This document shows, piece after piece, positions 2,868 to 26,421 of a stretch of DNA of 32,000 bases (position 1 is the first letter of the stretch; every line of letters starts with the position of its first letter). A program made the position numbers and the translations under genes. The stretch covers positions 2,310,001-2,342,000 of the forward strand of contig CAWJMG010000003.1 of NCBI GenBank assembly GCA_963843975.1, given 5' to 3'. This DNA comes from an uncultured Actinomycetes bacterium. GTDB taxonomy: Bacteria > Actinomycetota > Actinomycetes > S36-B12 > CAIYMF01. Below the pieces are notes generated by a model. It saw only the letters and a list, made by a program, of their open reading frames with translations. It was not told where the DNA came from and did no database searches.

Positions 2868-3734
2868 TCACCCGAAGCGGCCGTTGACGTAGTCGTAGGT
2901 GCGGCGGTCCTGCGGCTCGGAGAACACCGCGTCGGTCGGGCCGTGCTCCACGATGACGCCGGGCTTGCCCTGCTCGGCGAGGAAGAACGCGCACTGGTCG
3001 GAGACTCGCTGCGCCTGCTGCATGTTGTGGGTGACGATCACGATCGTCACCTCGTTGACGAGCTCGATGATCGTCTCCTCGATGCGACGCGTGGACGTCG
3101 GGTCGAGGGCCGAGCAGGGCTCGTCCATGAGGAGCACCCTGGGCTTGATCGCGAGCGAGCGCGCGATGCACAGGCGCTGCTGCTGACCGCCGGAGAGACC
3201 GCCGCCAGGGTTGCGCAGCCGGTCTCGCACCTCCTTCCAGAGGCCTGCCTTGGAGAGGCAGCTCTCGACGAGCTCGTCCTTGGTGTCCTTGCCCGCCTTG
3301 GTGCCGGTGAGCTGAAGGCCCGCGATCACGTTGTCGTAGATGGACATCGCCGGGAACGGGTTCGGCTTCTGGAAGACCATGCCGATGTGGCGGCGGGCGT
3401 CCGTGAGCCGCTTCTCCGGCGCGTAGATGTCGTCACCGTCGAGCAGCACCTGGCCCGACATCGTGGCGTTCGGGATGAGCTCGTGCATCCGGTTGAGGTT
3501 GCGCAGGAACGTCGACTTGCCGCAGCCTGACGGCCCGATGAGGGCCATGACCTCGCCGGCCTTCATGTGCAGCGAGACGCGGTCGAGCGCGTGGTGCGTG
3601 CCGAACCAGGCCGACACCTCGCGGGCGTCGAGCGTTCCGCCGTCGACCGTCGAGGGTGCCGAGGTCGGCGACGGCGCCGGCGCCGGCACCACGGTCGGCG
3701 TCTCGACAGCGGGAGACTGGGCCTCGATGGTCAT
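2868..3734 (-). CDS. pstB: Phosphate ABC transporter ATP-binding protein PstB
   Basis: Walker [10 protein letters not shown], signature [16 protein letters not shown], Walker [14 protein letters not shown]-loop VTHNMQQA. The characteristic PstB C-terminus is present ([11 protein letters not shown]), as is [13 protein letters not shown] at 3734 is preceded by AGGAAGAGA. Confidence 0.95.
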
Positions 3735-3788: not shown

Positions 3789-4715
3789 TCACAGGAGGTT
3801 GGGCAGCAGCGCGGCGACCTGGTTGCTCACGGCCCACCCGGTCGCGAGCAGCAGCGGCACTCCGACGGTCCAGGCCTGCCAGCGCCCCCAGCGCTCGCGT
3901 GACCAGGTGAAGAAGAGGACGGCGAGCAGGAACGCCTGCGCCCAGAGCACGAGCCCGAACGCCTGCGAGCTGTCGCCCGCCATCGGCCGCTCCGCGTCGG
4001 GCAGCGAGAGCGTCGTGACCGCACGCGGGCCGGCCGGGAACGGCACCTTGTCGACCGTGGTGCCGTCGGCGCTCGATCTGACCAACGTGGCATCCACACG
4101 GACCGTCGTCTCGGCGAGGTACGGCATTCCCTCGGCACTGATGAGGGTGAGGCGTGCGCCACCGGCCGTGAGGGGCTTCGGCTGGGGGTCGCCGGCACGG
4201 CGCACCGCGTCGACCACGTACGTCGAGAAGCCCTGCCCGGTCGTGACGGTGATCTCGGTGCCGGGAGTCAGCTGCCCGATGCCGCCGAACGGTCCGCCGA
4301 ACGCGGACTGACGCCCCATGACGATCGAGACGCCCGCCTGGCCGGGGAGCACGGTGTCCCGGCGATGACCCGGGCCCGACATGGTCTGCGACGACGCCGT
4401 GCCCTCGACCACGACCAGCTCCTTGCCGAGCGAGGGAAGGGCCAGGATCGCAACCGGCGCACCGATCGCGACGGGCTGACCCTCGAACGTGAGGGCGCTG
4501 ACCGGCGCCGTCCCCTCGGCGAGGGACTTGCGCAGGTCGCTGTAGAGCACCTGCTGGTCGCGCGCGGCCTGGAAGGGGCTGCCGACCACGAGCAGGAACA
4601 CGAAGCCGAGGCAGAGCAGCGCCAGCCCGGTCGTCACCGAGATGACATAGGCCCACATCGGCGACGGCTTGCGGTGCCGCGACGGCTTGGGCTTCGGCTC
4701 GGCGTCGCGCACCAT
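3789..4715 (-). CDS. Sortase-fold (class E-like) membrane protein lacking the canonical catalytic His and Cys. It has an N-terminal TM helix and two C-terminal TM helices.
   Basis: Sortase-like blocks are present: LPSLGKELVVVEG, SGPGHRRDTVLPGQAG, IVMGRQSAFGGPFGGIGQLTPGTEITVTT and ARLTLISAEG...VRVDA. The usual GHR is GRQ (ggg cgt cag, about 4306-4314). The usual TL(V/T)TC is LISAEG (ctc atc agt gcc gag gga, about 4127-4144). An alternative GTG start at 4856 lies 2 nt after the upstream stop. This gene is the C-terminal part of the spurious 1300-aa ORF 3789..7691. Confidence 0.7.
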   Translation of the reverse strand: MVRDAEPKPKPSRHRKPSPMWAYVISVTTGLALLCLGFVFLLVVGSPFQAARDQQVLYSDLRKSLAEGTAPVSALTFEGQPVAIGAPVAILALPSLGKELVVVEGTASSQTMSGPGHRRDTVLPGQAGVSIVMGRQSAFGGPFGGIGQLTPGTEITVTTGQGFSTYVVDAVRRAGDPQPKPLTAGGARLTLISAEGMPYLAETTVRVDATLVRSSADGTTVDKVPFPAGPRAVTTLSLPDAERPMAGDSSQAFGLVLWAQAFLLAVLFFTWSRERWGRWQAWTVGVPLLLATGWAVSNQVAALLPNLL

Positions 4716-4858
4716 CAGCGTGGGGCGACGCAGCCGCGTCCCCTTCTGCTCCGCGACCCGGCGGGCGCGCCGCCCACCCTCGGTCGACGACGAGGCGACC
4801 TCCCCCGTGGCCACCGCCACGGGGGAGGCCTGCGCCTCCTGGAGATCTGCGCTCACGA

Positions 4859-6202
4859 CTACTTGACCGTGACCGCGGCGCTCGTCTTGACGGCGGTGGC
4901 GTAGCCGGTGCGCTTGACCTGGACGGTGAGCGTGAGCTTCTTGCCCTTGTCCTTCGCCGTGGCCTTGTAGGTGGTCGCCGTGGCGCCCTGCTTCACGACC
5001 GTCGTGCCGCGCTTCCAGACGTAGGTGTAGGTGTACGTCGCCGTCGGCGACCACACGCCCTTGAACGCCTTGAGCGTCTCGCCGACGTTCGCGGCCGAGC
5101 CGGAGAACGTGATCCTCGGCGCCTTGGCCGCGACCGCGGCAGAGCCGAGGGCGACCTTCGTTGCCGCCGTGGTGCTCGGGCTGCCGTCGCCGATCGGGTT
5201 GGAGCCGGTGACGCGGCACGAGAGCGTCTTGCCGGCGTCCGCAGCGGCGAGGACGACGTCGGAGTCGGTGGTGCTGGTCTGCGCGACGACGCCGTTCTTC
5301 AGGAACTCGTAGGTGTACTGCGTGGCCCCCGACCAGACACCCGGCAGGCAGACGACGCGGGCGCCGACCTTCACGGTGCCGCTGAGCGACGCGGGCGACA
5401 GCAGCGTGGGGGCTGCGAGGCTGACCGTCACGGAGGAGTCGGTGGAGGTCGAGGACGTGAACGGGTCGGTGGCACCCGGGGTGTAGACGGCGGTCAGCGT
5501 GTGCGAGCCGAGTCCGAGAAGGCCGTAGCTCGTCGCCGCCACGCCGCTCGCGTCGACGCTTGCCGTGGCGAGGACGGTGCCGCCCTCCTTGAACGCCACC
5601 GTGCCCGTCGGCTTGGCGCCGGACGGGTTGGTCGTGTTGGACACCGCCGCGCTGAGGGCCAGCTGCTGACCCCAGCCCGAGGTGGCGGCCACGGAGAGCG
5701 TCGTGCTGGTGCCGGCCTTCACGACCGGCACCTGCGGCGTGACGGTGGCACCGCTGTTGGACACCGTGAAGGTGCCGACGTAGTCGCCGAGGGTCGCGGA
5801 CTGCAGCAGCGCGCGGCAGACGAGCGTGACGGTGTAGGTGCCGTCGTCCAGCTGGGTCAGGCCGTTGTTCGTCGCGAACACGCGCAGGGTGTTCGAGACC
5901 GGGACGGTGAACGCGCTGGCGATGCCGGTGCCGATGGTGCTGCCCGCGGTGTTGCCGACGATGTTGCCGGCGTCGACCGGGACGTTGCCGCCGGAGACCT
6001 TGACCTGGAAGTTCGTCGCAGGGTTCGGGCAGCCCGCCGACGTGGTCACGCTGAACGCCGAGTCCTGGGTCGTCAGCGACGTGAAGGTCAGCGAACCGAT
6101 CTCCGCGGCCTGGGCTGCGGGGGCGACGGCCACGATCGTGAGGCCGAGCGCCGCGGCGGCGATCGCACCGACGGCTCGGGTCGAACGGGTCAGCAGGTTC
6201 AT
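4859..6202 (-). CDS. Secreted surface protein (447 aa). It has a signal peptide, the shared two-Cys N-terminal domain, one Ig-like (Big-type) domain and two Ig-like G-x-W...Y-x-(W/F) repeats. No anchor motif.
   Basis: Signal peptide MNLLTRSTRAVGAIAAAALGLTIVAVAPAAQA, with GAAGGA before the ATG at 6202. The N-domain is about 75% identical to that of the next gene. The Ig-like segment reads TGTVAFKEGGTVLATASVDASGVAATSY...HTLTAVYTPG. The protein ends ...AAVTVK with no LAxTG or TM. Confidence 0.8.
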   Translation of the reverse strand: MNLLTRSTRAVGAIAAAALGLTIVAVAPAAQAAEIGSLTFTSLTTQDSAFSVTTSAGCPNPATNFQVKVSGGNVPVDAGNIVGNTAGSTIGTGIASAFTVPVSNTLRVFATNNGLTQLDDGTYTVTLVCRALLQSATLGDYVGTFTVSNSGATVTPQVPVVKAGTSTTLSVAATSGWGQQLALSAAVSNTTNPSGAKPTGTVAFKEGGTVLATASVDASGVAATSYGLLGLGSHTLTAVYTPGATDPFTSSTSTDSSVTVSLAAPTLLSPASLSGTVKVGARVVCLPGVWSGATQYTYEFLKNGVVAQTSTTDSDVVLAAADAGKTLSCRVTGSNPIGDGSPSTTAATKVALGSAAVAAKAPRITFSGSAANVGETLKAFKGVWSPTATYTYTYVWKRGTTVVKQGATATTYKATAKDKGKKLTLTVQVKRTGYATAVKTSAAVTVK

Positions 6203-6259: not shown

Positions 6260-7219
6260 CTAGCGGCGCTCGTGCCGACCGACGACCTGCGGCCGTCCGG
6301 CACCGAGCAGGGCGAGGCCGGCCACGAGGGCGAGGACGGCTGTGAGGCCGAGCACCGGTCCACCGGCACCCGTCTGGGCGAGTCCACCGGTCGATCCGCC
6401 GCCGGCGTTCTCCGACGCCGTGACGGTCGGGTCGGCGCTCGCGGTGTCGATCGGCGTGGCCGACTCGGTCGGTGTCTCGGACTCCGTCGGCGTGGCCGTG
6501 GCGGTCGCCGTGTCCGTGGGCGTCGCCGTCTGCGACGCGGTCGCCGTGGCCGTGGGCGTCACGGTCGGCGTGACTGTGGGCGTCACGGTCGGCGTCACCG
6601 TGGGGGTCACGGTCGGCGTGGCCGTGGGCGTCACGGTCGGCGTCACGGTTGGCGTCACCGTGGGCGTGACCGTCGGTGTCACGGTCGGCGTCACCGTGGG
6701 CGTGACGGTCGGTGTGACCGTCGGGGAGGCCGTGCTCGGGACGACCGGGGTCACCTTCGTGCCCGTGCCGCTGACCACGAACGTGCCCACGTAGTCGCCC
6801 TGCGACGCCGAGGCCAGGAGGCCGCGGCAGATCAGCGTCGTCGTGTAGGTGCCGTCGCTGAGCGCCGACAGGCCGTTGTTCGTCGCGAAGACCCGCAGCG
6901 TGTTCGACACCGGCACAGCGAAGGGCCCTGCGTTGATGCCCGTGCCGATCGTCGCGCCCGCGGTGTTGCCGACGATGTTCCCCGCCGTGGTCGGGATGTT
7001 GCCGCCGGTGACCTTGATCTGGAAGTTGGTCGCGCCGGCCGGGCAGCCCGCCGACGTCGTGACGCTGAACGGCGAGTCCTGCGTCGTCAGCGACGTGAAG
7101 GTCAGCGTTCCGATCTGGGCGGCTGACGCCGTGCCGGACAGGAGCGCGAGAGCACCCGAGGCCGCACCGAGCGCGATGAGGACCGACGCGGCAGAGCGTC
7201 GTACGAGCGACTGGGACAT
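6260..7219 (-). CDS. LAQTG cell-wall-anchored surface protein (319 aa) with the shared two-Cys N-terminal domain and a (TPTV)n stalk
   Basis: ATG at 7219 is preceded by GGAAGAGGAG, followed by a signal peptide. The C-terminal sorting signal is LAQTG, then the hydrophobic stretch AGGPVLGLTAVLALVAGLALLGAG, then the basic tail RPQVVGRHERR. The track ORF extends to 7270, which overlaps the upstream stop. Confidence 0.85.
   Translation of the reverse strand: MSQSLVRRSAASVLIALGAASGALALLSGTASAAQIGTLTFTSLTTQDSPFSVTTSAGCPAGATNFQIKVTGGNIPTTAGNIVGNTAGATIGTGINAGPFAVPVSNTLRVFATNNGLSALSDGTYTTTLICRGLLASASQGDYVGTFVVSGTGTKVTPVVPSTASPTVTPTVTPTVTPTVTPTVTPTVTPTVTPTVTPTATPTVTPTVTPTVTPTVTPTVTPTATATASQTATPTDTATATATPTESETPTESATPIDTASADPTVTASENAGGGSTGGLAQTGAGGPVLGLTAVLALVAGLALLGAGRPQVVGRHERR
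6548..6724 (-). repeat. 12-bp tandem repeat encoding (TPTV)n, about 14-15 units, within a longer T/P/A/E-rich stalk (6416-6724)
   Basis: The plus strand shows GTCACGGTCGGC/GTCACCGTGGGC-type 12-mers repeated head to tail. The translation is PTVTPTVTPTV...TPTATPTVTPTV. Confidence 0.9.
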
Positions 7220-7266
7220 GGTGCTCCTCTTCCGGACGACCGTCGTGCGACGGTCCGACGTACGGC

Positions 7267-8136
7267 TCACAGCGCATCGACCCGCTCGCGCTGGCCGACG
7301 GGCTCGTCGGCGCGACGCAGCGGACGACGGAGCGCCGTCGCGATGGCGAGGCCGACGAGCAGGACGACTCCGGCCCCCAGCAGCACGTTGCGCGCCGTGG
7401 TGTCGGCCACCGGGCGGCTGCCGGTGGAAGCTGCCGCGTCGGTCTGGTCGCCGGCCACCGGCGCCTGTGTCGAGCCGGGTGCGGCGCTCTCCCCCGGCGC
7501 CGCCGTCCCGGCGCCGCTCGGCTGCGCAGACGGGTCGCCCTGCTGGGCCGGCTCCCCCGTGGCGGCGGCGGTGGGGTCGAGGCTGCTGCCGGCCAGCGGG
7601 TCGGCGGGGTCGAGCGGCTTGAGCTCGGTGTTGAACGGCTTCGCGGTCTCGCCGAGGGCCGTGAAGGCGCCCTTGCCGTCGAGCAGCACACGACCGCTGA
7701 AGGCGCCGTACGTCAGCGACCCGCGCAGGAGGTCGCGGCAGGTGGCGGTGAGCGTGTACGTGCCGCCGGGCTTCACCTGGATCGCGTTGACGGCGAACCA
7801 GTCGCGAAAGGTGAACGACAACGGCACGAGGAGCTGACCGCTCACGGTCGGCTTGAGCGCCTTCAGCTGGGTGACACCGACGAGGTTGCCGACGGTGTTG
7901 TCGTCAGGGATGTTCGGTCCGGACAGCGTCACGACGACCGCTGTCGCCTTCGCCGGGCACGGCTCCTCGGTGAGGATGGAGGTGACGTCGGCGACCTTGG
8001 CCGACGCTGGGTCGAGGCGTACCCAGCCGAGGTCGGCCTCGGCGGCGGCCGCGGGACCCGCCGCCAACGAGAGCACCGACCCGGCGAGAAGGGTGGCGAG
8101 CGCCGCGCCGAGTGCGCGGACGACCAGGCGGGACAT
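7267..8136 (-). CDS. Membrane-anchored surface protein (289 aa). It has a divergent copy of the two-Cys N-terminal domain, a low-complexity P/A/G/S linker, and a C-terminal TM helix with an RRPLRR tail.
   Basis: ATG at 8136 is preceded by GAGGAAGGA. Signal peptide MSRLVVRALGAALATLLAGSVLSLAAGPAAAA. Cys pair in ...EEPCPAKAT... and ...LTATCRDLL.... The C-terminus reads NVLLGAGVVLLVGLAIATALRRPLRR with no LAxTG. Confidence 0.75.
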   Translation of the reverse strand: MSRLVVRALGAALATLLAGSVLSLAAGPAAAAEADLGWVRLDPASAKVADVTSILTEEPCPAKATAVVVTLSGPNIPDDNTVGNLVGVTQLKALKPTVSGQLLVPLSFTFRDWFAVNAIQVKPGGTYTLTATCRDLLRGSLTYGAFSGRVLLDGKGAFTALGETAKPFNTELKPLDPADPLAGSSLDPTAAATGEPAQQGDPSAQPSGAGTAAPGESAAPGSTQAPVAGDQTDAAASTGSRPVADTTARNVLLGAGVVLLVGLAIATALRRPLRRADEPVGQRERVDAL

Positions 8137-8159
8137 GGCGATCCTTCCTCGGGCCGATC

Positions 8160-8222
8160 GGTCCGCGAACGGACGGGAACGGTGCTGCGTCACGTGGTCA
8201 ATCCACGTGGGTGGAGGTGAAC
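8160..8222 (-). promoter_or_regulatory. Candidate regulatory cluster upstream of the 7267..8136 gene: GTTC-repeat units plus a perfect 7-5-7 palindrome
   Basis: Read on the minus strand, the order is GTTCACCTCCA (8222-8212), then CACGTGG-TCAAT-CCACGTG (8191-8209), then GTTCCCGTCC (8180-8171) and GTTCGCGGACC (8170-8160). All lie within a 160-bp intergenic gap. Confidence 0.35.
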
Positions 8223-8296
8223 GGACGGTTGCCTGAAGGCATCCGACGCGATGCGGTTCGCGGTACAGATCTGCGTCGTCCGTGCGGCCTTCTTCG

Positions 8297-8672: not shown

Positions 8673-9575
8673 TCAGTGCCGGGGCACGTACGCGCGCGAC
8701 CCACCGGCCGCCGCCACGAGCAGCGCGCCGACGAGCAGCAGGAGCAGTCCGGAGCCGAGCGGGGCAAGGGGGTCGGCCCCGGTGTGCGCCAGGGTGCCCT
8801 GGGGTGTCGAGGCCGGCGACACGCGTGGCGTGGTGGTGCTCGTGCCGGGGACGACCGCTGGCGCCACCTGGGTCGCGGACGGCCCTCCCGGGGCGATGAC
8901 GTAGAAGACGGCCTGGCTGACGGCCGACCCCGCCGACGCGTCAATCGTGTAGACGCCCGGGGCGAACCCCGCGGGAAGCAGCAGCGTGAGAGACCCTGCG
9001 CCCGCTGCATCGACGCGGATGTCGGGCGTCAGCGTCTGCGTGCCGAGCCGCACGACGACCTCGGCGTACGCCGGGTAGCCCGCGACGTTCACGCGGTACG
9101 AACGGCCCGTCTGGACGGGTGCGCTGCCGGGTACGAAGGCCCCGGCGGCCGTGGTGACCCATACCGACGGCACACCGGTGACGACGAGGCCCACGGGCGA
9201 GCTCTGCGAGGACGTGAACGCCCCCGGGTCGTAGGGCACGAACGTCGCCACGACGTCGGGGGTGCCGACGGGGAGGTACAGGGCGCCGGTCGTCGCCGTC
9301 CCGTCGGCCACGTCCACCGACGCGAGGATCCGTCCGTCGCCGGTGAACCGGACGAAGCCCGTCGCACCACCGGGCGCGACCCGCGCGGAGAACGACAGCG
9401 GGGTCCTGACGGTCGCGGTCGTGGCCGGGAGCACCTGCAGAGCCGTGGTCGTGACCACCGGCTGGCCGTCCGCCGACGCGGCCGGGAGGCTGAGACCGGA
9501 CACCGACGCAGCGAGGAGCGCGACGGCGAGCACGGACACGACGCGCCGCAGCGCGGTCGACCCCGTGGCGGTCAC
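8673..9575 (-). CDS. LAHTG cell-wall-anchored Ig-like surface protein (300 aa)
   Basis: GTG at 9575 is preceded by GGGAGAG. Signal peptide ...ALRRVVSVLAVALLAASVSGLSLPAASA. Ig-like segment GFVRFTGDGRILASVDVADGTATTGALYLPVGTPDVVATFVPYD. Sorting signal LAHTG, then a hydrophobic stretch, then GGSRAYVPRH. Confidence 0.8.
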   Translation of the reverse strand: MTATGSTALRRVVSVLAVALLAASVSGLSLPAASADGQPVVTTTALQVLPATTATVRTPLSFSARVAPGGATGFVRFTGDGRILASVDVADGTATTGALYLPVGTPDVVATFVPYDPGAFTSSQSSPVGLVVTGVPSVWVTTAAGAFVPGSAPVQTGRSYRVNVAGYPAYAEVVVRLGTQTLTPDIRVDAAGAGSLTLLLPAGFAPGVYTIDASAGSAVSQAVFYVIAPGGPSATQVAPAVVPGTSTTTPRVSPASTPQGTLAHTGADPLAPLGSGLLLLLVGALLVAAAGGSRAYVPRH

Positions 9576-9717: not shown

Positions 9718-10860
9718 TCAGCGCCTGGCGCTCACGAGCGCTTCCTCCGCGGGCCCGGAGCCCCGCACCCGACGGCCGGCGGGCGGCTCGGTGAGCCGAC
9801 GGCGGCGGATGAGGAGCGCGAGCAGCAGGACCAGAAGGAGCAGGCAGCCCACGACGAGCCACGGGACCGCCCAGAACTGCGTCGTCGCGGTCACCGGCTC
9901 CGAGGGCGGGTTCGCGTCGCCCTCGGCCGCGAGCGGGAAGACCCGCACCGTCGCGGTCATGAGCAGCTGCGGCGTCACCTCGGGCACGGGGATGGTGAAC
10001 GTCGCCGTGCCTCCGGGGAGGAGCAGCGGGACGTCGGGGACCTCGGCCGCCTCCACGGCTCCCCCGAAGATGCCGGCGACTCCGACCGACTGGCGGCCGC
10101 CGAGCCGCACGTTCCCGGTGTTCCGCACCGTGTAGGTGACGACCGCGGTACCGCGCCCGAACGGGTTGAGCGTGCCGTTGTACCGGGCGGAGAGACCCTC
10201 GACCGAGAGCTCCGCCTTCAGCTCGCCGGCGACACGGACCGCCATCTTGAGGGCGACGCGCTGCTCGAGCTTGACGACCGATCCTCGGTCTCCCGGCGTC
10301 GCGCCCTTGGCCACGGTCGACACGACGATGCCCGCGAGGTGGTCGCCGACCGGGGCGCCCTTCGGGATGGTGACGCGGAACGGCACGAACAGCGTCTGCT
10401 TGGGCGCGAGCTTCACGAACGGCTTGCCGGAGGGTGTGGTGAAGACGACCCACTTCGCGGCGTCGGCGATCTTCGCGGCAGCCGGCTGCAGGCCGAGCTC
10501 GCCGTCGGGGCCGTTGACCGCGTCGACGGCGTACAGGTTCAGCGTGAGGGGGACGGTCGAGAGGTTGACGACCGCCACCTCGTCCTTGACCACTCCGCCA
10601 CGTGTGCTGAGGAGCGTGTAGCCCGTCCTCAGGTCGAGCTTGCCCTTGCTCGACGGGCCGAGCCCGTAGGTGACCGTGGTCGGTGGTGCTGAGGCCGTCG
10701 ACGAGGGCGACGGCGAGGGCGACGGGCTGGCGGCGAGCGCGGGGCCGGACGCGCCCACGAGCAGGGCCAGGGCGAGCGCGGAAGCGCTGAGCGGGGCGAG
10801 CAGGCGGCGGGCGATCACCCCCGTATCCGACCGGGTCCGTGCGACGTGCGGGCCAAGCAA
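9718..10860 (-). CDS. DUF916-like (CscA-like) cell-surface protein with a C-terminal TM anchor (380 aa)
   Basis: A signal peptide is followed by SPSPSPSPS. The pattern resembles DUF916: YGLGPSS..LDLRTGYTLLSTRGGVVKDEVAVVNLSTVPLTLNLYAVDAVNGPDGELGL and WVVFT...VKLAPKQTLFVPFRVTIPKGAPVGDHLAGIVV. C-terminal TM WLVVGCLLLLVLLLALLIRRRR. The assignment is by eye only. Confidence 0.65.
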   Translation of the reverse strand: MLGPHVARTRSDTGVIARRLLAPLSASALALALLVGASGPALAASPSPSPSPSSTASAPPTTVTYGLGPSSKGKLDLRTGYTLLSTRGGVVKDEVAVVNLSTVPLTLNLYAVDAVNGPDGELGLQPAAAKIADAAKWVVFTTPSGKPFVKLAPKQTLFVPFRVTIPKGAPVGDHLAGIVVSTVAKGATPGDRGSVVKLEQRVALKMAVRVAGELKAELSVEGLSARYNGTLNPFGRGTAVVTYTVRNTGNVRLGGRQSVGVAGIFGGAVEAAEVPDVPLLLPGGTATFTIPVPEVTPQLLMTATVRVFPLAAEGDANPPSEPVTATTQFWAVPWLVVGCLLLLVLLLALLIRRRRLTEPPAGRRVRGSGPAEEALVSARR

Positions 10861-10939: not shown

Positions 10940-12694
10940 TCAGGCGCCGATCACCGTGAAGGTGATGACACCGGTGTAGAGACCGGCGGTGACGCTGGTG
11001 GGCGCCGTCACCGTCAGGGTGCCCTGCGCGGTCGTGGTACCGAGACCGTTGTTGGCGTGCAGGATCGAGTGCGGCGCGGTGCCGCCCAGACCCTGGTTGC
11101 CCACGTTGTTGTAGGTCAGGTACTGACCGGCGGGGTTGTCGAACGCCGAGAAGTTCGTGGCGGCGTTCGGGCTGCCCGCAGGCAGGTTCAGCGTTGCGGT
11201 GCTGTCGACGGCGTTCGTCGTGAAGGTGAGACCCGTGAGACCGACGTTGTTGCTGCTGATGGTCTCGGTCGGGCCGGCCGCACCCTTGGTGAAGGTCGAC
11301 GACAGTGCCTGGGCGGTCCAGGCGGTGTTACCGGCGCGCGTGTCGGCGACGGTGATGTTGGCGAAGGTCGCCGTGGCCGAGAAGCCGTTGACGCCGTTGA
11401 GGGTCATGGGACCCATGGCGAGCGGCGAGGCGGCGGTGTACGGCGTGTTGATGGTGATGACGCCCGCGGGGACCTCGACCGTGACGGTCTGCGGGTCCGT
11501 GTCGAGCGGCGTGAGGTTCGCCGTCACCGAGAAGGACGCAGCCGGGCTGGTCGACGCTGCGAAGGCGGTGCCACCCACGGCGCTGCCGAGGTAGTCGGCG
11601 GTGACCGAGTACGGGCCACCGGTCGGCTTGAAGACGCTCAGCGTGGCGACGCCGGAGGCGTTGACCGCGATGGGCGAACCGACGTTGGCGCCGTCGACCT
11701 TGAACTGCACCTGGCCCACGGTGACGGGCGAGGCGCCGTTGGTCACCGTCGCGGTGGCCACGACGGCAGAGCCGTTCGTGACTGACGCGGCGGACAGACC
11801 GAGGCCGGTGCTGGTCGCGACGCTGTTCTGCGTCACGGTCAGCGTGGTGCTGCCGGTGCTGTTGCCGTAGTTCGACGTCGCGTCCGATCCGCCGGTGAAG
11901 ACGGCCGAGACGGCCTTGGCGCCGGCCGCCAGCGAGGAGTACGAACCCGAGACCGCGACGCCGGCCGCGTTCACCGCGACCGGGGCGCCGAAGTTCACGC
12001 CGTCCACCTTGAACTGCACCGAGCCCGCGATCGCCGAGCCGGAGGCCGGCGAGACGGTGGCGGTGAAGGTGCTCGAGCCGAGCGTGTCGATCGAGGCGGG
12101 CGCGGCCGACACGACGGTCGTGGTGGCCACGTTCTGCAGGATCGGGCCGGCCGAGGCGACCGAGCCGTTGGCGGCGATCACGACGCGGCCGCTGAACTCG
12201 CCCAGCGTCGCCGACGAGGTCAGCGTGCGGCAGACGAGCTCGACGAGGTAGGTGCCCTGGCCGAGGGCCGCGAGGCCGTTGTTGGACGCGAACTGCTGGA
12301 GCGTCTGGGAGACCGGAGCGGTGAACGCCTGGTTGATGCCACCGGCAATGGTCGAGCCGGCGGTGTTGCCCTGGATGTTCGGCGCGGTCGGGGGCGTGGC
12401 CAGGTTGGCCGTGTTGCCCGGGACGCTCGGGTCGTTCGAGACGCGGATCTGGAAGTTCGTGGCGTTGGTCGGCGTGGTGGGGCAGCCGGCCGAGGTGGCC
12501 ACGGAGAAGGGGGCGCTCTGGGCCGAGCCGGCGGAGATGCCGGTGAAGCTCAGCGCACCGATCTGTGCGGCGGAGGCCGCCGGGGCTGCCACGAGGGCAG
12601 CCCCGGCGACGAGCGCCGCAGAAAGTCCGGCCACAGAGGCGCGGGTGAGGAGACGCTTCATGAGTGAGTCAGTCGCTTTCTGCGTTGGTGTCAC
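10940..12694 (-). CDS. Secreted surface protein (584 aa). It has the shared two-Cys N-terminal domain, two Ig-like (Big-type) domains and a C-terminal WxL-like domain (CscB/C-like).
   Basis: Signal peptide ...LSAALVAGAALVAAPAASA; the start may instead be ATG 12661 (MKRLL). Ig-like segments read GSVQFKVDGVNFGAPVAVNAAGVA and GQVQFKVDGANVGSPIAVNASGVA. The C-terminal ~190 aa reads ITVADTRAGNTAWTAQALSSTF ... GLYTGVITFTVIGA, resembling the two-motif WxL architecture. Confidence 0.7.
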   Translation of the reverse strand: MTPTQKATDSLMKRLLTRASVAGLSAALVAGAALVAAPAASAAQIGALSFTGISAGSAQSAPFSVATSAGCPTTPTNATNFQIRVSNDPSVPGNTANLATPPTAPNIQGNTAGSTIAGGINQAFTAPVSQTLQQFASNNGLAALGQGTYLVELVCRTLTSSATLGEFSGRVVIAANGSVASAGPILQNVATTTVVSAAPASIDTLGSSTFTATVSPASGSAIAGSVQFKVDGVNFGAPVAVNAAGVAVSGSYSSLAAGAKAVSAVFTGGSDATSNYGNSTGSTTLTVTQNSVATSTGLGLSAASVTNGSAVVATATVTNGASPVTVGQVQFKVDGANVGSPIAVNASGVATLSVFKPTGGPYSVTADYLGSAVGGTAFAASTSPAASFSVTANLTPLDTDPQTVTVEVPAGVITINTPYTAASPLAMGPMTLNGVNGFSATATFANITVADTRAGNTAWTAQALSSTFTKGAAGPTETISSNNVGLTGLTFTTNAVDSTATLNLPAGSPNAATNFSAFDNPAGQYLTYNNVGNQGLGGTAPHSILHANNGLGTTTAQGTLTVTAPTSVTAGLYTGVITFTVIGA

Positions 12695-12700
12695 GAACGA

Positions 12701-13729
12701 TCAGGACTGGCTGGACGTGTCGCCACAGCTCGGGTTCGCACCGAAGCCGTTGGCGGTGATGACCGACGTCTGCTGGCAGACGAGGCTGGAGCCACCCACG
12801 AAGACGGTGCTCCACGGGGCGACCGCGATCTTCGAGGTCGGGATGATGTTGAACAGGTCGCGCGAGACCGGGAAGGACGCGTTGCCGTTGACGGGCAGCG
12901 TGCCGCCGATCTGGCCGAGCACGTTCAGGGCGCCGCGGACGTCGGTGTTGTTGCCGGCGGCCTGGACGTTGTAGAGGCCGATCGAGAACGGCATGATCTC
13001 GTCGGTCTTGAGCGAGCGGCCGTCGTTCTCCTGGACGTACGGACGACCGGTGCCGGGGACGCCGTTCACCGTGGTGCCGACCGGCACGAGGCAGGGGTAG
13101 GTGCCCGCCGAGATCTGCGCCTCGGTGATGCCCATCTGCCCGATCCAGAACGCGCGCGAGCCGGAACCGGTCTGCGGGAGCACCGGCCAGATGTCGGGCG
13201 TGAAGAGGCACTTGTAGACGTTCTGGACGTCGGTGAGGCCGAGGCCGACGCGCGCCACGTTGCCGTCACCACGGGTGATGTAGGTGCTGGAGTCCTTGGC
13301 GAACGGGATGAAGGTAAGCGACGGCGTCGAGGTGAAGGTGCCCTTCGCCGACGACGAGCGCGAGAAGTCGAGGCAGCCCGACCGCGGGTCGGCGGCCTGC
13401 AGCGACTCGAGCAGGCGCGAGCGGCCTGCACCGGAGCCGTTGGCCTCGGTGCGGGTGTAGGTGCACGCCGCGTTGGCGGTGCGGGTCTGGAACGTCGCGG
13501 GCGAGCCGATGGCGTCCCACGACGCGATCTGCTTCACGCCGCCGATCTGGACCGCGTCGGCCAGGTCGTTCATGACGTTCTGCGTGGTGTCCGAGCCGAC
13601 ACCCGTGAGAGCGCGGCTGCCGCCGGCCGGGGTTCCGTTCGGGTCGGCCGAGGCCGGGGATGCCGAGAGCAGCCCCGCCGCGACCAGGCCGACGCCAGCG
13701 ACGGCGGCCAGGGTCTTCGAGATCTTCAC
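12701..13729 (-). CDS. Secreted PstS-family/PBP-like substrate-binding protein (342 aa), ligand unknown
   Basis: GTG at 13729 is preceded by GGGAGAGGA. Signal peptide MKISKTLAAVAGVGLVAAGLLSASPASA. PBP-like motifs are LTGVGSDTTQNV, NGSGAGRSRL, LDFSRSSS and QTGSGSRAFW. There are six cysteines. It lacks the RxDGSGTT phosphate-clamp motif. Confidence 0.7.
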   Translation of the reverse strand: MKISKTLAAVAGVGLVAAGLLSASPASADPNGTPAGGSRALTGVGSDTTQNVMNDLADAVQIGGVKQIASWDAIGSPATFQTRTANAACTYTRTEANGSGAGRSRLLESLQAADPRSGCLDFSRSSSAKGTFTSTPSLTFIPFAKDSSTYITRGDGNVARVGLGLTDVQNVYKCLFTPDIWPVLPQTGSGSRAFWIGQMGITEAQISAGTYPCLVPVGTTVNGVPGTGRPYVQENDGRSLKTDEIMPFSIGLYNVQAAGNNTDVRGALNVLGQIGGTLPVNGNASFPVSRDLFNIIPTSKIAVAPWSTVFVGGSSLVCQQTSVITANGFGANPSCGDTSSQS

Positions 13730-13829: not shown

Positions 13830-16321
13830 TCAGGTGCGACGGGATGCGATCCACGGCAGGACGGTCCTGGCGAGCAGGGCCGACAGGCCGAGTACGAGGG
13901 CGGCCAGCAGGGCGAGACGGCTCGCCGAGGCTGGGTCCGCGGGGGTCGGCGCCGACGCGGCCACCGGCTGGGTGGACGGTGTCGAGGTCGGCGCCGGTGC
14001 CGAGGTGGTCGGGTCAGGAGTCGGGCTCTCGCCGCCGGTCGCCGGCACTCCGGCGCCGTCGTCGGGGACGACGACCGGGGTCGGCTCCGGCGTCGGGGAC
14101 GACTCCGTCGGAGTCGGGGTCGGGGTGGGCGTCGGCGTCGGTGTCGGCGCCACGTAGCTCCGCAGCGCGGCCGCCGCTGCGACCGTCTTCGCCGTGAGCG
14201 CGTCGGTCAGCGGGAGGTACCCCTCGGGCAGCTGCCCGGGAGCGGTGCCCGGCGTCTGCCCGGCACCGGCGGCGTAGGTGAGGAGCTTGGCGTAGTCCTC
14301 GCGACGGTCGGCCGTGAGCTTGGCGGGGACGGTCGCCGCGTAGCTCACGATGGTCAGCGGGTACGCAGCCGCGTTCGTCGTCGTGAGGTTCGGGAGGAGC
14401 ACGCCCTGCTTGTCCGGCGGCATGGCCGAGACGGCTGCGGACATCGAGGCCTGGTCGGGCGCGACGAAGGCGCCCGAGGCGTTCTTCAGCGCCACCGCCA
14501 CCTGGCGGTACCGCGCGGCCGACGCGGTGTCGGTCAGCCCGAGCATCGACCGCTGTCCGAGGGTCTGGTTCGGGGAGAGGCCGTACGAGTTGACCACCGC
14601 GAGCTTGGGCACGTCGCGACGGTTCGTGTCGCCGCGGCTCACCTGGCGGGCCGTGGCGTTGAAACCCGCGGCGTACGGGTAGACGTCGAGCGTGCAGTTG
14701 GCGAGGTCGAAGCCCGGCGGCGCGTTCGGCGGCACCTGGCAGCCGAGGTCCGCCCGGGGGAACGAGCTCGTGGGCAGGGTGAGCCCGACGTACTTCTCGT
14801 TGAGCTTCATGCCCCACGGGTCAGCCTTGCCGGCGAGGAACGCTGCGGCCTCGGGGTCCGACACGATGTAGCGCCACAGGAGGTCGGCGGAGTCCGACAG
14901 GCCGGCGTTCACCAGGAGCCGGCCGAGGCCACCGCCGATGAGGACCGTGTAGCCCTGCGGCTTGAAGTCCGGGTTGATGGCGAGGAAGTCGGGATCGCGC
15001 GAGATGTCGTACGGGTTCGTGCCGACGTTGGTCGCGGTGCCGTTCGCGAGGTCGAACGGGTAGCTCTGGGTCATGAGCTTGGCGAGCAGGCGCGGGGTCA
15101 GGTTGACCTGTTCGATGCGCGACCCGACCTTGCCGCGGATGTCGGCGGGGACGGAGTCCGGGCCGATCGGCTTGCCGCTGGGGTCGCGGACCGGCATCTG
15201 ACGGTCGACGTTGGCGACGAAGGTCATGGCGCTCACCGCCACCGGGGCGTAGACCACGCCCTTGGTCGACGGGTCGCTGCTGGTGACGAAAGCGAGACCC
15301 GGGTCGTCCGAGGCGATCTGCTGCCGGGTGGTGTCGTCGGACAGGCTGGTGAAGCCGTAGTTGTTGGCGCCGAGCCCGCACAGCTCGGGCTGCCACGCCG
15401 TGATCGCCTCGGTGATGAAGTCGGTGCCGAAGGTCGGGGTTTCGGGGCGGCCGAAGCTGCAGGCCGCACCGATGGGCTGGAAGGCGAGCGGGATGGTGAT
15501 CGCCTGCGTGAAGTTCGTGGTCGACAGCGGCGACGTGGAGAGCCAGTCGTCCGACCGGGTGCCGACGACCGTGCCGTCGACCTCGGTGAGACTGCGAGGC
15601 ACGATCACGAGGAAGCAGTTCGGCGTCCGGCCGTTGATGCTCTGGCCGCAGCCGAGGCCCGGGGCCTCGAGGCCGGTCTGCATCTCGAAGAACGCCTGGC
15701 CGGTGCCGTCCTGCGCCGTTCGGCCGATCGGGATCTCGTTGGTCGTCGAGCCGTCGAAGAACTGGCTGCGACGCTCGGTCTCGACCGTGCCGTCGACGCC
15801 GTGGAACTCGACGTACTTCTGGGTGAAGTCGCCCGGAGCCTGGACGTAGACCGTCTCGTTCGGGTCCTTGACCGGCTGTGTCATCTGGCGGGACGCGATG
15901 TTGGCCGAGCCGTCCGGCACGTCGACGAAGCCGCCGTACTGGCACTGCTCGCGGGTGGGCTTCTGGCCCGGCTCGGCCCAGCACTGCATGAGCTGCATGT
16001 AGTTGCCCAGCACGGTGCCGCTGCCCGTGACGAGGGAGGGGGCGGCGTTCTTCCACGTGACCGTGACCGACTGGTTGACGAGGTCGGTCGTCTGGTCGAC
16101 GGTGAACTCGACCGACGAGAACTCACCCGTGCCGGTGACCGTCACGGGCTCGTGGCCGCCGCCGCGCGCGGTGAGATCGATGCCGCCGCGTCCTCCGCCG
16201 GGCCGCCCACGAGGACGGTCGGCACGACTGCGAACGCAGCCGCCACCGCGACGGCGACGCCGCGCGCAACACGCTCGCCGGTGATCCGGCGGCGCGGCCG
16301 GGTGGTGAGGACGTGGCTCAC
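13830..16321 (-). pseudogene. Large (~830 aa) secreted PstS-family-like protein with a P/T-rich stalk and C-terminal TM anchor. An apparent 1-nt frameshift lies between the signal peptide and the mature part (or is a sequencing error).
   Basis: GTG 16321 overlaps the upstream TGA (GTGA). It encodes the signal peptide VSHVLTTRPRRRITGERVARGVAVAVAAAFAVVPTVLVGGPAEDAAA, then hits TGA after 59 codons. The body (IDLTARGGGHEPVTVTGTGEF...) reads in the -1 frame. The span is 2492 nt (3n+2). The C-terminal half has PstS-like ends: YPLTIVSYAATVP...LLTYAAGAGQ...LPEGYLPLTDAL. Then come (PT)n and TM LALLAALVLGLSALLA with tail SRRT. The 997-aa track ORF is an artefactual upstream extension. Confidence 0.7.
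13920..14150 (-). repeat. Low-complexity P/T-rich stalk-coding region, including (PT)7
   Basis: The translation is APTPTPTPTPTPTPTESSPTPEPTP...SAPAPTSTPSTQP, immediately before the C-terminal TM helix. Confidence 0.8.
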
Positions 16322-18031
16322 GAGCTACCGCCCTTACGGGCGAGGCGGGACACGACCGGCGGGGCCATGACGGCCGCGAGCAGGACGATGCCCGCGAGCA
16401 GGATGAGCGAGCCGGAGGCGCCTGAGGCAGCACCCGTGGCGGTCGAGACGGGGACTGCCGCGACCGGCACGCCGCCGTCCGTCGTCGTGTCGCCGCCCGA
16501 GGAGCCGCCGTCGGCGGGCAGACCGGTGTCGGGGTCGACGACGTCGCCGCCGGAGGAGCCGGCGCCACCGCCCGACGTGCTGCCGTCGCCCCCGGAGGTG
16601 GACCCACCTCCCGTCGAGCCGCCACTGCTGCCGCCGGAGGTCGAACCGCCGCCGGAGGAGCCGCCGCTCCCGCCGGACGAGCCACCGCTCGAGCCACCTG
16701 AGGAGCCACCGCCCGAGCCGGACCCGCCGGACGAGCCGCCCGACTTCGCGGTGCCGCACTGGAGCGGGCCGTTCTTGTCGCAGGCGGCAGGGAACGGCGC
16801 GGACTTGGCCAGGGTGTTCTCACCGGTCGCCGAGAAGGTCGGGTTGTTGCACTTCTTGATGTCGACGTTCTCGACCGTCACGCCCGGGATGCGCTTGACC
16901 TGCTTGAGGCCGGCCTGCACGAGGTTGATCGGGAGCGGCGAGAAGCCGAGGCGCGGCGCCTGCTGCTGGCCCTCGCACAGGAAGTAGTACGCGAACGCGC
17001 CGAGCGACTTGCCCTTGGCGGCGTTGAAGGTCCCCTCGACCGCGGTGGGGATGACCATGTAGCTGTAGCTCGACAGCGGGTACGCGCGGGCGTCCCCGTT
17101 GTTGTAGACCCCCGAGAGGTCCTGCGTGAGGTAGGTCGGGTCGGTCTCCGCGACCTTGTCGTTGATCTTCGCCTTGAGCAGACCCACCGCGACGTTCTGG
17201 GGGGTGGGCTCGACGTAGTAGCCGGCCTTGTTGAGCAGCTTCACGACAGGGAAGCCCGCGTTGAGCGCGTAGGAGTACTCGACGTAGGTGATCGTGCCCT
17301 CGTTCTGCTGCTGCGAGACGTATCCCGAGACGCCCAGCGATCCGGCCTGGGCGGTGAAGCCCTTGCCGGAGACCACCGGGTAGATCGACGTGGTTCCGCA
17401 AGGGGTCGGGCGGTTGGCCTGCTTGCAGTAGCTGTCCCAGAGCCCCTGGTACTGCTGGGAGAGGTACGTCGTGAACTGGGCCGTGGTACCCGAGCCGTCG
17501 CCGCGGACCACCGGCACGATCTTGCGGCCCGGCAGCACGAGGCCCGGGTTGTCCTTCTTGATCTGCGGATCGGCCCAGCTGGTGATGACCCCGGTGAAGA
17601 TCTTCGCGATCGTCTCGCCCGACAGCCGCAGCTGAGTGACGCGCTTGCCGCCGATCTTGAGGTTGTACATGAACGACGTGCCACCGGCGACGATCGGCAT
17701 GTAGGCGTACTTGCGCGACGGCGGTGAGTCGACGACGCCGGCGTCCTTGAGTCCGTAGGGGATCTCGGACACGGCGAAGTCGACGGTGCCGTTGCGGAAC
17801 TGGTTGCGGCCGTCGGAGGAGCCGGTGCCGGCGTAGTTCACGCGCAGGCCGTACTGGTTGACGTTCTTGCGCCACTGCTCGATGGCGTTCTGGCTCCAGG
17901 TGGAGCCGGCGCCGGAGATCGGGACGTACGCTCTCGGCCTGCGCAGCCCCCAAGGACACGGACAGCCCGGCGAGCGTCGCGGCGACGACGACGGAGCCTG
18001 CGCGCAGCAGTCGCGTGGCGCGACGCGTCAT
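16318..18031 (-). pseudogene. pstS: Phosphate-binding protein PstS homologue with a C-terminal Gly/Ser stalk and TM anchor. An apparent 1-nt frameshift lies just after the signal peptide (or is a sequencing error).
   Basis: The body carries the PstS phosphate-clamp motifs ISGAGSTW, YAGTGSSDG, DFAVSEIP and VVRGDGSGTTAQFTTYL. ATG 18031 (RBS GAGGCGGAGG) encodes MTRRATRLLRAGSVVVAATLAGLSVSLGAAQAES in a different frame from the body. The frames meet near 17925-17940. The span is 1714 nt (3n+1). There is no lipobox Cys. The C-terminus has 92 aa of G/S-rich sequence, then LILLAGIVLLAAVMA and SRLARK. Confidence 0.75.
16471..16746 (-). repeat. Low-complexity Gly/Ser-rich stalk-coding region
   Basis: The translation is KSGGSSGGSGSGGGSSGGSSGGSSGGSGGSSGGGSTSGG.... 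The DNA consists of degenerate GGN/AGC-type repeats. Confidence 0.8.
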
Positions 18032-18105: not shown

Positions 18106-19407
18106 TCATGAAGTCGTGTCTCCTTCTGAGGGGCTAACAGGTGAACTCGTGGCAGGGAGCGGTACCCGAGCGGGTGAGGCCGGTGACTCGTCGTCGTCGA
18201 CCATGCGCTGGAAGTCACGGCGGGACTGCGCGGCAGCACGGCGGCGCTGGCGGTTGCTCAGCTGGCCGGGGCCGCGGCCCCCCACGATGCGGGCAAGGAT
18301 GAACAGGATCAGGACCAGCACGAGGAGCACGGTCGCGGCGCCGAAGCCGCGCTGCTTGAAGGTCTCCTCGGACGAGCCGATGAACTTGAACGCCGCCAGC
18401 GGGAGGCTGATCATCGGGCCGTCGAGCGGGTTGAAGTTCAGCGACTGCGTGAAGCCTGCGGTCAGCAGGACGGGCGAGGTCTCACCGACGCCGCGGGCGG
18501 TGCCCAGGATGATCGCGGTCATGAGACCGGAGCGCGCCGTCGGCAGCGTCACGTGCCACACCGTGCGGATCTGGCTGGCGCCGAGCGCGTACGACGCCTC
18601 CTTGAGGTTGCCCGGCACGAGCCGGAGCACGACGTCGGACGCGCGGATGATGATCGGCAGCATCATCACGCTGATCGCGAGAGCGGCGGCGAGCCCCGAC
18701 TTGGGCCTGTCGAAGATGATGATGAACGTGGCGTAGATGAACAGGCCCGCGATGATCGAGGGCAGCGCCGTCATCGCCTCGACGATGATGCGCACGAAGC
18801 GGGAGAACCGGTTCGGCAGCTCGTTCATGAAGACCGCGGTTGTCACGCCGAGTGGGATCACGATGACCAGCGCGATGGTGATCATGATCAGCGAGCCGAC
18901 CATCGCGTGCAGGATGCCGCCGGAGTCGAGCGGGTCGAGCGGCCCGGTGTTGCTCATGTCCTCGGTGTAGAAGTTCGTGTGCTTCAAGGCCTCGATGCCG
19001 TTGATGACGACGTAGCTCACGACCCACACCAGAGCGCCGACGAGGACCGTCGCCAGCGACGTGACCACTGCTGCCACGAGCCGGTCGACGACCGCCGTGC
19101 CGTCCTCGTCCTGCCACACGACGAGTGCGTACACCGCCAGGAAGATGCCGTACGCCACGAGGACGAAGCCGACGACGCTGTTGAACGGCGCGATGAAGTT
19201 GAAGATGATCGCGGTCAGCGAGACGGCCGCGATCGCCGCCCCGAGCAGCTGCAGCACGTCGGACAGACGCACCTTCGCGATCGGTCGCTTCGCGGCCGGC
19301 GGCTGGGAGAAGTCGTGGTTGACGACCGTCGTGCGCGCCCCGTCGGCCGGCGCGGAGCCCAGGGCTACCGCGAGGAGCTCGGCGCGGTCGATCTCGGTGG
19401 TGGACAT
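18106..19407 (-). CDS. pstA: Phosphate ABC transporter permease PstA
   Basis: Motifs include ...EAMTALPSIIAGLFIY..., PGNLKEASYALGASQIRTVWHVTLPTARSGLMTAIILGTARGVGETSPVLLTAGF and multiple TM helices. The start lies 1 nt after the pstC stop. Confidence 0.9.
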   Translation of the reverse strand: MSTTEIDRAELLAVALGSAPADGARTTVVNHDFSQPPAAKRPIAKVRLSDVLQLLGAAIAAVSLTAIIFNFIAPFNSVVGFVLVAYGIFLAVYALVVWQDEDGTAVVDRLVAAVVTSLATVLVGALVWVVSYVVINGIEALKHTNFYTEDMSNTGPLDPLDSGGILHAMVGSLIMITIALVIVIPLGVTTAVFMNELPNRFSRFVRIIVEAMTALPSIIAGLFIYATFIIIFDRPKSGLAAALAISVMMLPIIIRASDVVLRLVPGNLKEASYALGASQIRTVWHVTLPTARSGLMTAIILGTARGVGETSPVLLTAGFTQSLNFNPLDGPMISLPLAAFKFIGSSEETFKQRGFGAATVLLVLVLILFILARIVGGRGPGQLSNRQRRRAAAQSRRDFQRMVDDDESPASPARVPLPATSSPVSPSEGDTTS

Positions 19408-26226: not shown

Positions 26227-26421
26227 CTCCCTCATACAAGGGAGTGTCAAGAATCAGCCGAAGTAGCTGTCAACCATCAGCCGAAGACATGTAAAGCCTC
26301 AGCCGAAACCCAACTGTCAGGCATCAACCGAGGGGCGTTCTCAACTGGTAGTTGCACGTGGTCTTGTGCAGCTTGGAGGTTGGGATGCCTGGAGCGAGGT
26401 TGACCGAGCACGACCGTGGGG

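Follow-up and report, generated by a model that had tools for sequence, protein, structure and literature searches.

What does a protein with a sortase fold do in a Pst-type ATP-binding cassette (ABC) transporter operon once its catalytic residues have been replaced? The question is raised by a gene in a 32,000-nucleotide stretch of DNA from an uncultured Actinomycetes bacterium (GenBank assembly GCA_963843975.1, contig CAWJMG010000003.1, positions 2,310,001 to 2,342,000), the whole of which we call the window and within which positions are counted from its first nucleotide. Sortases are defined by transpeptidation with Cys, His and Arg, and a first-pass annotation, made from the sequence alone, had described the product of this gene as a class E-like sortase that lacks the catalytic His and Cys and is nevertheless intact and retained. 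The existence and the genomic context of a family of such pseudo-sortases, here named pSrt, are firmly established by the analyses reported below. For its function we tentatively propose a non-catalytic role at the transporter.

A sortase fold without the catalytic residues

The open reading frame (ORF) of pSrt is intact. Its GTG start lies 2 nucleotides past the stop of the upstream gene, and its own stop is followed after 54 nucleotides by the ATG of the next gene, which is preceded by a ribosome-binding site. A public protein of 355 residues (P0001) is 100% identical to pSrt, and the GC content of the window, about 71%, is that of high-GC actinobacterial DNA. The sortase homology and the likeness to class E, originally read by eye, are borne out by Pfam, NCBIfam, phmmer and AlphaFold2 with Foldseek alike. 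The match to Pfam PF04203 (Sortase), at 40.5 bits (E = 2.7e-10), exceeds the gathering score of 26.6. The top NCBIfam family is class_E_sortase (NF033747) with 60 bits (E = 2.8e-16), which is far below the cut-off of 160, and phmmer against the PDB retrieves the class E sortases 5go5 and 5go6 (E = 3.7e-10). The AlphaFold2 model, based on 67 homologues, has a predicted local distance difference test (pLDDT) score of 92.3 and a predicted template modelling (pTM) score of 0.86, and consists of a beta-barrel with a single long helix on its N-terminal side and two helices on its C-terminal side. Among the best 50 matches that Foldseek listed from the PDB there are only sortases, with target-normalised TM-scores of at most 0.77; SrtE1 (5cuw) reaches 0.73 against the target, and S. 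avermitilis SrtE (5go5) is 28% identical. By its eight-stranded sortase barrel fold and its Pfam score, pSrt is a member of the sortase superfamily. The prediction places the two extra C-terminal transmembrane helices that had been noted earlier at residues 251-276 and 278-303 in the 308-residue form. The positive-inside distribution, taken together with the model, predicts that the N-terminus and the RWGRWQAW loop are cytoplasmic, that the ectodomain sits outside and close to the membrane, and that the C-terminus is outside as well.

Three independent alignments agree on the register of the active site. In the phmmer alignment, vaGHRrtyG of SrtE pairs with vmGRQsafG of pSrt; in a family profile, gRLtLvtAe pairs with LLTLVTCT of a class C sortase (8t28). 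The third is a hidden Markov model (HMM) alignment to a genuine class E sortase with GHY, AGHR, LTLTTCN and the Arg, encoded at 6591-7760 of locus L005, which comes from one metagenome-assembled genome (MAG); here GHY pairs with GHR, AGHR with MGRQ, LTLTTCN with LTLISAE and ERLIV with VRVDA. This sortase is encoded about 4 kb downstream of the pSrt homologue in the same locus, so that active and dead paralogues share one genome. The alignments and the codons thus uphold the earlier reading that the His has become Arg (CGT) and the Cys has become Ala (GCC, with Ser AGT before it), and the proper alignments restore neither a His nor a Cys.

The same replacements run through the family. Every one of 84 species loci has Arg at the His position; in this set the Cys position is Ala in 72, Gly in 8, Thr in 3 and Val in 1, and the Arg position is Arg in 73 and another residue in 11; 83 of the 84 domains are without any Cys. 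A broader set of 151 sequences, made up of 150 diverse cluster representatives and the window query, has Arg (148) or Lys (3) at the His position and Ala (115), Ser (17), Thr (8), Gly (5), Val (5) or Leu (1), but never Cys, at the Cys position. At the Arg position this set has Tyr in 55 sequences, Arg in 54 and Phe in 11 in addition to others, and about two thirds of it carry a residue other than Arg (Tyr, Phe, Leu, His or Trp). The whole triad is therefore dispensable in the family. In real sortases the conserved Arg hydrogen-bonds the backbone of the signal (PMC5148588). A further class E residue, Tyr229 of SrtE1, which follows the GH motif in the beta3/beta4 loop and has been proposed to select Ala at P3 (PMC5148588), is replaced by Arg or Lys in 115 of 120 pSrt homologues, as in the pairing of GHY with GHR above. 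Failing the model cut-off and lacking the His, the Cys and the class E Tyr, pSrt does not belong with the active class E sortases and would work unlike them.

The family is large and retained. A word-indexed search gave more than 2,000 relatives, the best 120 of which are 46-100% identical to pSrt and go under the names 'sortase', 'class E sortase' or 'LPXTG-site transpeptidase' in their sources, and an exhaustive profile search gave 674 clusters (50% identity) at E <= 1e-30. In a scan of one genome per species the family was found in at least 479 species, and the named hosts are all Actinomycetota: Streptomyces, Kitasatospora, Micromonospora, Actinoplanes, Dactylosporangium, Jiangella, Kineosporia and Nakamurella, together with Microbacteriaceae, Propionibacteriaceae, Pseudonocardiaceae, Acidimicrobiales and Nanopelagicales. 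The nearest relative, from a Nanopelagicales MAG, is 78% identical, and the ratio of nonsynonymous to synonymous substitution rates (dN/dS) against it is 0.20, more distant comparisons being saturated. Twenty columns are invariant in the homologues, among them the Arg at the His position, and GPGHRRDT.LPGQ.G, TTGQG, RWGRWQAW, LLPNLL and the Asp two residues past the Arg position vary little or not at all. In ten family members of unusual length the sortase domain is the only one, with no fused domain.

These data bear on the suspicion that pSrt is a decaying class E sortase pseudogene, or that the register is wrong and a His and a Cys are present after all. Two other genes of the same operon, S1 and X810, are apparently frameshifted in the window, and insertion sequence (IS) elements lie nearby, as might be expected of a decaying region. 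The pSrt ORF is intact, however, the dN/dS is low, nearly all domains are free of Cys, and the same substitutions recur in the 84 species loci and the 150 representatives, with no orthologue keeping the His or the Cys. Decay is ruled out by this conservation together with the dN/dS, and a wrong register by the three alignments; we regard the chance of either as practically negligible. Since the family is large, carries the same substitutions throughout and has a dN/dS of this size, pSrt is a retained family under purifying selection and not a decaying gene, and the earlier claim of an intact, selectively maintained dead sortase holds. The best explanation of its origin is descent from class E-type sortases, with the barrel and the N-terminal anchor kept and a C-terminal two-helix hairpin gained.

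The Pst-type operon and its tail-anchored proteins

From 20461 down to 2868, the genes on the minus strand form an operon for a Pst-type ABC transporter that is interrupted by insertions and in which pSrt adjoins pstB. This was overlooked by the first-pass annotation, as was the status of the LAxTG proteins, which are a variable accessory, whereas the universal partners of pSrt are the transporter and the tail-anchored PstS paralogues. The proteins of the window were mapped by tblastn onto 83 fetched loci. From Streptomyces to Acidimicrobiales, the gene order is almost everywhere pstC-pstA-S1-X810-P347-(variable)-pSrt-pstB, and pstB is the immediate downstream neighbour of pSrt in 81 of the 84 loci. 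Gene calls give the same order in a Streptomyces, in a 708-kb MAG contig and in three further diverse members. The pseudo-sortase is a core, co-inherited part of a specialised Pst-type operon of Actinomycetota.

The S1 protein, a PstS, shows by eye the PstS hallmark motifs, including RSDGSGTT, with Glu at the equivalent of Asp56. In X810 no Pfam domain is recognised. Most of its homologues are called 'hypothetical protein' and a few 'PBP domain-containing protein'; the AlphaFold model of X810 (pLDDT 81.7) matches PstS structures in Foldseek with TM-scores of 0.75-0.79. P347 (also at 7302-8345 of the locus L003) has no Pfam or NCBIfam match and is PstS-like in profile-profile alignment, where its motifs GSDTT, NGSSAG, DFARSS and AGSGTR are in register with the phosphate-site motifs of PstS. 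The equivalents of PstS Arg135 and Asp56 are changed in P347, and its ligand may, judging from these residues, be other than orthophosphate. As S1, X810 and P347 are all PstS-like, the system has three PstS-fold proteins. We infer from sequence similarity that phosphate would be the substrate of the importer. Neighbouring genes in other loci (L087 13097-18970; L086 4609-5622) encode a PF04185 phosphoesterase with a faint match to a choice-of-anchor I domain, together with a HAD hydrolase and an ABC transporter of the phosphonate type, or else a phytase-like protein, which fits a role in phosphorus acquisition.

Two of the three PstS-fold proteins end in conserved tails whose motifs are set in otherwise low-complexity stalks. 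About 56 of 63 loci have in S1 an island with the consensus [VI]DP[DE]TG, at positions -72 to -75 counted back from the C-terminal end; it is followed by PVSL..GW, a conserved transmembrane helix ending in GPP, and basic residues. In X810 the motif TPxxxxGxxR[WY] directly precedes a transmembrane helix that ends in GP and basic residues. Together with the proteins encoded at 7267..8193 and 9718..10860, S1 and X810 make up the four window proteins with stalk, transmembrane helix and basic tail but no LAxTG that had been listed earlier, and all four have such tails.

The LAQTG and LAHTG tails that had been reported for two surface proteins of the window are likewise present. Across the loci, the gene directly upstream of pSrt usually ends in L[AP]xTG, with LASTG in 32 Streptomyces-type loci, LPVTG or LPRTG in Micromonosporaceae, and others. 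In the Streptomyces substrates (e.g. L003 8458-9912) the cytoplasmic tail RRxGLLxFGEPR is conserved as strongly as LASTG, which is unexpected because such tails are normally discarded after sortase cleavage. The number of L(A/P)xTG/Big_3_5 proteins and of the DUF916-like protein varies, and they are missing from some loci.

The sorting signals raise the possibility that pSrt is a regulator or holdase of the housekeeping class E sortase pathway, which would bind the L(A/P)xTG signal and either shield it from cleavage, so that the protein stays membrane-anchored by the transporter, or present it to SrtE. The signal in the gene next to pSrt in most loci, the RRxGLLxF tail, which suggests that the uncleaved form matters, and the true SrtE at a distance of about 4 kb in L005 would suit such a role. 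We nevertheless consider it unlikely. An L[AP]xTG gene is missing altogether from several loci, P347 being directly upstream of pSrt in L062 and L072, and in Nanopelagicales-type loci the gene upstream of pSrt is without an anchor. Arg or Lys stands in place of the class E Tyr that is proposed to recognise Ala at P3, and the transmembrane hairpin, the cytoplasmic loop and the adjacency to pstB point to the transporter and not to SrtE.

Candidate functions of the former sortase groove

The reading that we favour, still tentatively, makes pSrt a non-catalytic adaptor by which the binding proteins of the operon would be held, through their C-terminal anchor regions, at the Pst-type importer. The conserved family and its synteny speak for it, as do the client-like signals in the tails of S1, X810 and the L[AP]xTG proteins. 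The three transmembrane helices and the conserved cytoplasmic loop would integrate pSrt with the transporter in the membrane, and the membrane-proximal sortase-like groove would bind, without cleaving them, the juxtamembrane or stalk motifs of the tail-anchored binding proteins. The groove would likewise bind the L(A/P)xTG signal of the surface protein encoded next to pSrt in those loci that have one. Such binding would keep the binding proteins assembled at the importer and coupled to PstCA(B). We favour the adaptor because a sortase groove is placed to engage a motif just outside a transmembrane helix; both the tail binding and the contact with the transporter are what we infer. A more far-reaching version, which is possible but doubtful, would make pSrt the recognition subunit of a new C-terminal-anchor system, with a permanent hold on PVSL..GW, TPxxxxGxxR[WY], [VI]DP[DE]TG and the L(A/P)xTG protein, by which an envelope-spanning phosphate-capture complex would be assembled on the importer.

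Several observations weigh against a hold on these tails. By alignment, two groove residues of SrtE1 have become charged in pSrt (Tyr229 to Arg or Lys, Ile331 to an invariant Asp), and on such sequence grounds the ligand of the groove may be something other than a sorting-signal-like peptide. The S1 island is missing from about 10% of loci; in some lineages it has a Cys on either side (CDPDTGIC), and it may be no more than a structural turn or a Ca-binding-like loop. A weak hint in favour of the hold is that the functional site of pSrt that covaries most strongly with the island is the former catalytic Arg column: Arg occurs with the island in 50 loci and without it in 2, and a residue other than Arg with it in 8 and without it in 7, counts that include four extra diverse loci. 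These four, all non-Arg, split 2:2 for the S1 motif. The association is neither strict nor free of confounding by phylogeny. A simple scan for PHO boxes upstream of pstC, with one match in 31 loci, carries little information, since most of these loci had too little upstream sequence. Lastly, the Thr or Ser before the former Cys is conserved and Thr159 is invariant, which would leave some room for an alternative chemistry, though an improbable one.

If such chemistry existed, pSrt would be an enzyme with another nucleophile, be it the Thr or Ser before the former Cys, Thr159 or a Ser at the Cys position itself, and would be a sorting enzyme dedicated to the tails of the PstS paralogues, which it would process at a signal of a new kind. 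Thr or Ser precedes the former Cys in 150 of the 151 sequences, the Cys position is Ser in 17 of them, Thr159, Asp208 and Arg135 (pSrt numbering) are invariant, and the tails are tripartite (motif, transmembrane helix, basic cluster) like known sorting signals. Yet no conserved pair of nucleophile and base can be seen, and the Thr of TLxTC is a structural residue that sortases have by ancestry. Only a minority of members have Ser at the Cys position, where Ala, Gly or Val prevail, and the family can do without the catalytic Arg. Processing by pSrt appears improbable to us.

We give little credence to another proposal, drawn purely from sequence, in which the former active site would be an Arg-lined pocket for an anion or ligand (phosphate, a phosphorylated wall polymer or a lipid-linked pyrophosphate) and pSrt a sensor or capture module of the transporter. 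It is consistent with the constant Arg or Lys at the His position, with Arg or Lys at the class E Tyr position, with the conserved GHRRD, with the invariant Asp two residues past the Arg position and with the phosphate-uptake context of the operon. Sortases, moreover, naturally bind lipid II. On the other hand, the Arg and the Asp may merely form a salt bridge and fill a dead site. The adaptor remains the function that we prefer for pSrt.

The window and related systems

The features of the pSrt gene and of the surrounding operon are collected in the table. Between P347 and pSrt the window encodes six surface or secreted proteins.

Table. Positions in the window of the pSrt gene, its domains and former catalytic codons, and the genes of the Pst-type operon
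Feature	Position	Strand	Remarks
pSrt ORF	3789..4856	-	355 residues from GTG 4856; 308 residues from ATG 4715
N-terminal transmembrane helix of pSrt (WAYVISVTTGLALLCLGFVFLLVVG)	4581..4655	-	runs on into conserved juxtamembrane helix RDQQ..Y..R..LA
Beta-barrel ectodomain of pSrt, sortase fold	4071..4466	-	
C-terminal transmembrane hairpin of pSrt	3807..3965	-	near-invariant loop RWGRWQAW, predicted cytoplasmic; LLPNLL end, predicted extracellular
Arg codon CGT at catalytic His position	4311..4313	-	Arg or Lys in every family member examined
Ser-Ala codons replacing Thr-Cys of TLxTC	4134..4139	-	Ser AGT 4137-4139, Ala GCC 4134-4136
Arg codon CGT at catalytic Arg position (beta8)	4098..4100	-	kept in pSrt of the window
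PstC permease	19409..20461	-	TIGR02138, 256.6 bits (cut-off 196.45); first gene of the operon
PstA permease	18106..19407	-	TIGR00974, 224.7 bits (cut-off 193.45); N-terminal extension of ~110 residues
PstS (S1)	16318..18031	-	TIGR00975, 208.3 bits (cut-off 205); Gly/Ser stalk, DPDTG island, C-terminal transmembrane-GPP-basic tail
X810-type protein	13830..16324	-	N-terminal beta domain, PstS-fold domain, disordered stalk, transmembrane tail
P347-type third PstS-like binding protein	12701..13729	-	342 residues; without transmembrane tail
Large secreted protein	10940..12694	-	shared N-domain, two Big_3_5 domains
DUF916/WxLIP_PGBD-like protein	9718..10860	-	weak match; C-terminal transmembrane helix and RRRR tail; accessory
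Surface protein with LAHTG sorting signal	8673..9575	-	
Protein with stalk, transmembrane helix and basic tail, without LAxTG	7267..8193	-	
Surface protein with LAQTG sorting signal	6260..7219	-	TPTV-repeat stalk
Secreted protein	4859..6202	-	shared Cys-containing N-domain, Big_3_5 domain, no anchor
pstB-like ABC ATPase	2868..3734	-	54 nucleotides downstream of pSrt

Two of the operon's genes appear damaged in the window. In S1 the reading frame apparently shifts past the signal peptide at 17930-17940, where MTRRATRLL...GAAQAES is out of frame with the mature AYVPISGAGSTW; the change fits a 1-nucleotide insertion. In X810 the apparent shift is at 16170-16200, where the signal peptide ...AFAVVPTVLVGGPAEDAAA is out of frame with the mature IDLTARGGGHEPVTV, and X810 is also split in the related MAG locus L001. 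Both are probably indel errors of the assembly; real inactivation is the less likely cause.

The surface proteins have features of their own. The two secreted Big_3_5 proteins and the LAQTG protein of the window, and the Streptomyces protein at 8458-9912 of L003, are paralogous and have in common an uncharacterised N-domain of about 140 residues with two conserved Cys (IG.LTFTS...SAGCP...DGTY...CR) and no match in Pfam or NCBIfam; Big_3_5 Ig domains follow, and often an L[AP]xTG signal comes last. The stalk of the LAQTG protein, at 6400-6800 on the minus strand, is a near-perfect TPTV tetrapeptide repeat with a 12-nucleotide period in the DNA and is likely to vary in length. The protein at 9718..10860 matches WxLIP_PGBD/DUF916 below the threshold (E = 4e-4) and has homologues in 34 of the 84 loci. 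The WxLIP_PGBD/DUF916 family is known from WxL/Csc surface-complex loci of Firmicutes. On the plus strand at 328-2775, next to pstB and convergent with it, an 815-residue multi-pass membrane protein without a Pfam or NCBIfam match is encoded, which is conserved only in the closest relatives (L001, L004). Three transposases at 25048-28876, IS481-like (rve/HTH_32), Mutator-family (PF00872, 439 bits) and IS30-like (rve/HTH_38), suggest that the region to the right of the operon is rearranged or rich in mobile elements.

With the class E sortases (S. coelicolor SrtE1/SrtE2, 5cuw; S. avermitilis SrtE, 5go5; Thermobifida fusca SrtE) pSrt shares the beta-barrel (TM-score 0.73, 22-28% identity), the motifs GxGH..T.LPGQ.G, G(H/R)..x.G.PF and (L)TL.T., and an Arg on beta8, as well as the N-terminal transmembrane anchor, the actinobacterial spread and LAxTG neighbours (PMC5148588). 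It is unlike them in having neither the Cys nor the His, in the frequent loss of the Arg, in the exchange of the class E Tyr for Arg or Lys, in the two added C-terminal transmembrane helices with their conserved cytoplasmic loop, in a score of 60 against 160 bits, and in the fixed place that it takes beside pstB among the genes of a Pst-type transporter.

In function, the closest parallel is with the isd locus of staphylococci (isdC-D-E-F-srtB-isdG), in which SrtB, an active Cys transpeptidase, anchors IsdC: there, too, a sortase-family gene lies inside an ABC-importer operon with surface-displayed and membrane-anchored nutrient-binding proteins. Unlike SrtB, pSrt is a dead enzyme, and it belongs to a cargo system of the Pst type whose binding proteins are attached through transmembrane tails. 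The operon of the window resembles canonical PstSCAB in that PstS, PstC and PstA score above the NCBIfam equivalog cut-offs; PstB has 339 bits in the window and 342 in a Streptomyces locus against a cut-off of 343.2. It differs in its order (C-A-S...B), in a PstS that is carried on a C-terminal stalk and transmembrane helix and not on a lipid, and in the two added PstS-fold paralogues, the surface proteins and pSrt placed between pstS and pstB.

Inactive partners of ABC systems are known from EnvC, a degenerate LytM protein that acts as the extracytoplasmic partner of FtsEX. The likeness to pSrt would be one of concept only, as there is no homology and FtsEX is of the mechanotransmission type and not a type I importer. 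Exosortase with PEP-CTERM, archaeosortase with PGF-CTERM and rhombosortase with GlyGly-CTERM resemble the pSrt operon in combining tripartite tails with a dedicated multi-transmembrane partner encoded nearby. Those partners are active proteases or transpeptidases of unrelated folds, while pSrt is a triad-less sortase fold for which processing is not indicated.

A search of the open-access full-text literature gave no account of a family of Cys-less or inactive sortases, or of pst operons that include a sortase gene, and a paper on the five sortases of Actinoplanes (PMC13251363) has no candidate of the size or type of pSrt. Within the literature searched, this large triad-less branch of the sortases is without prior description. 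In annotation, sortase counts and predicted substrate pairings are inflated in hundreds of actinobacterial genomes, many of them Streptomyces, Micromonospora and Actinoplanes, by a protein that is incapable of sortase chemistry. The family also serves as a marker of a second, uncharacterised system of the Pst type. Of the three PstS-fold proteins in this system, two sit on long stalks with C-terminal transmembrane tails, a new architecture for nutrient capture across the thick Gram-positive wall. As a peptide-recognising enzyme fold turning scaffold, pSrt offers a tractable case; if the permanent hold on C-terminal anchors proposed above is true, it would be the first sortase fold repurposed from 'cut and attach' to 'hold'.

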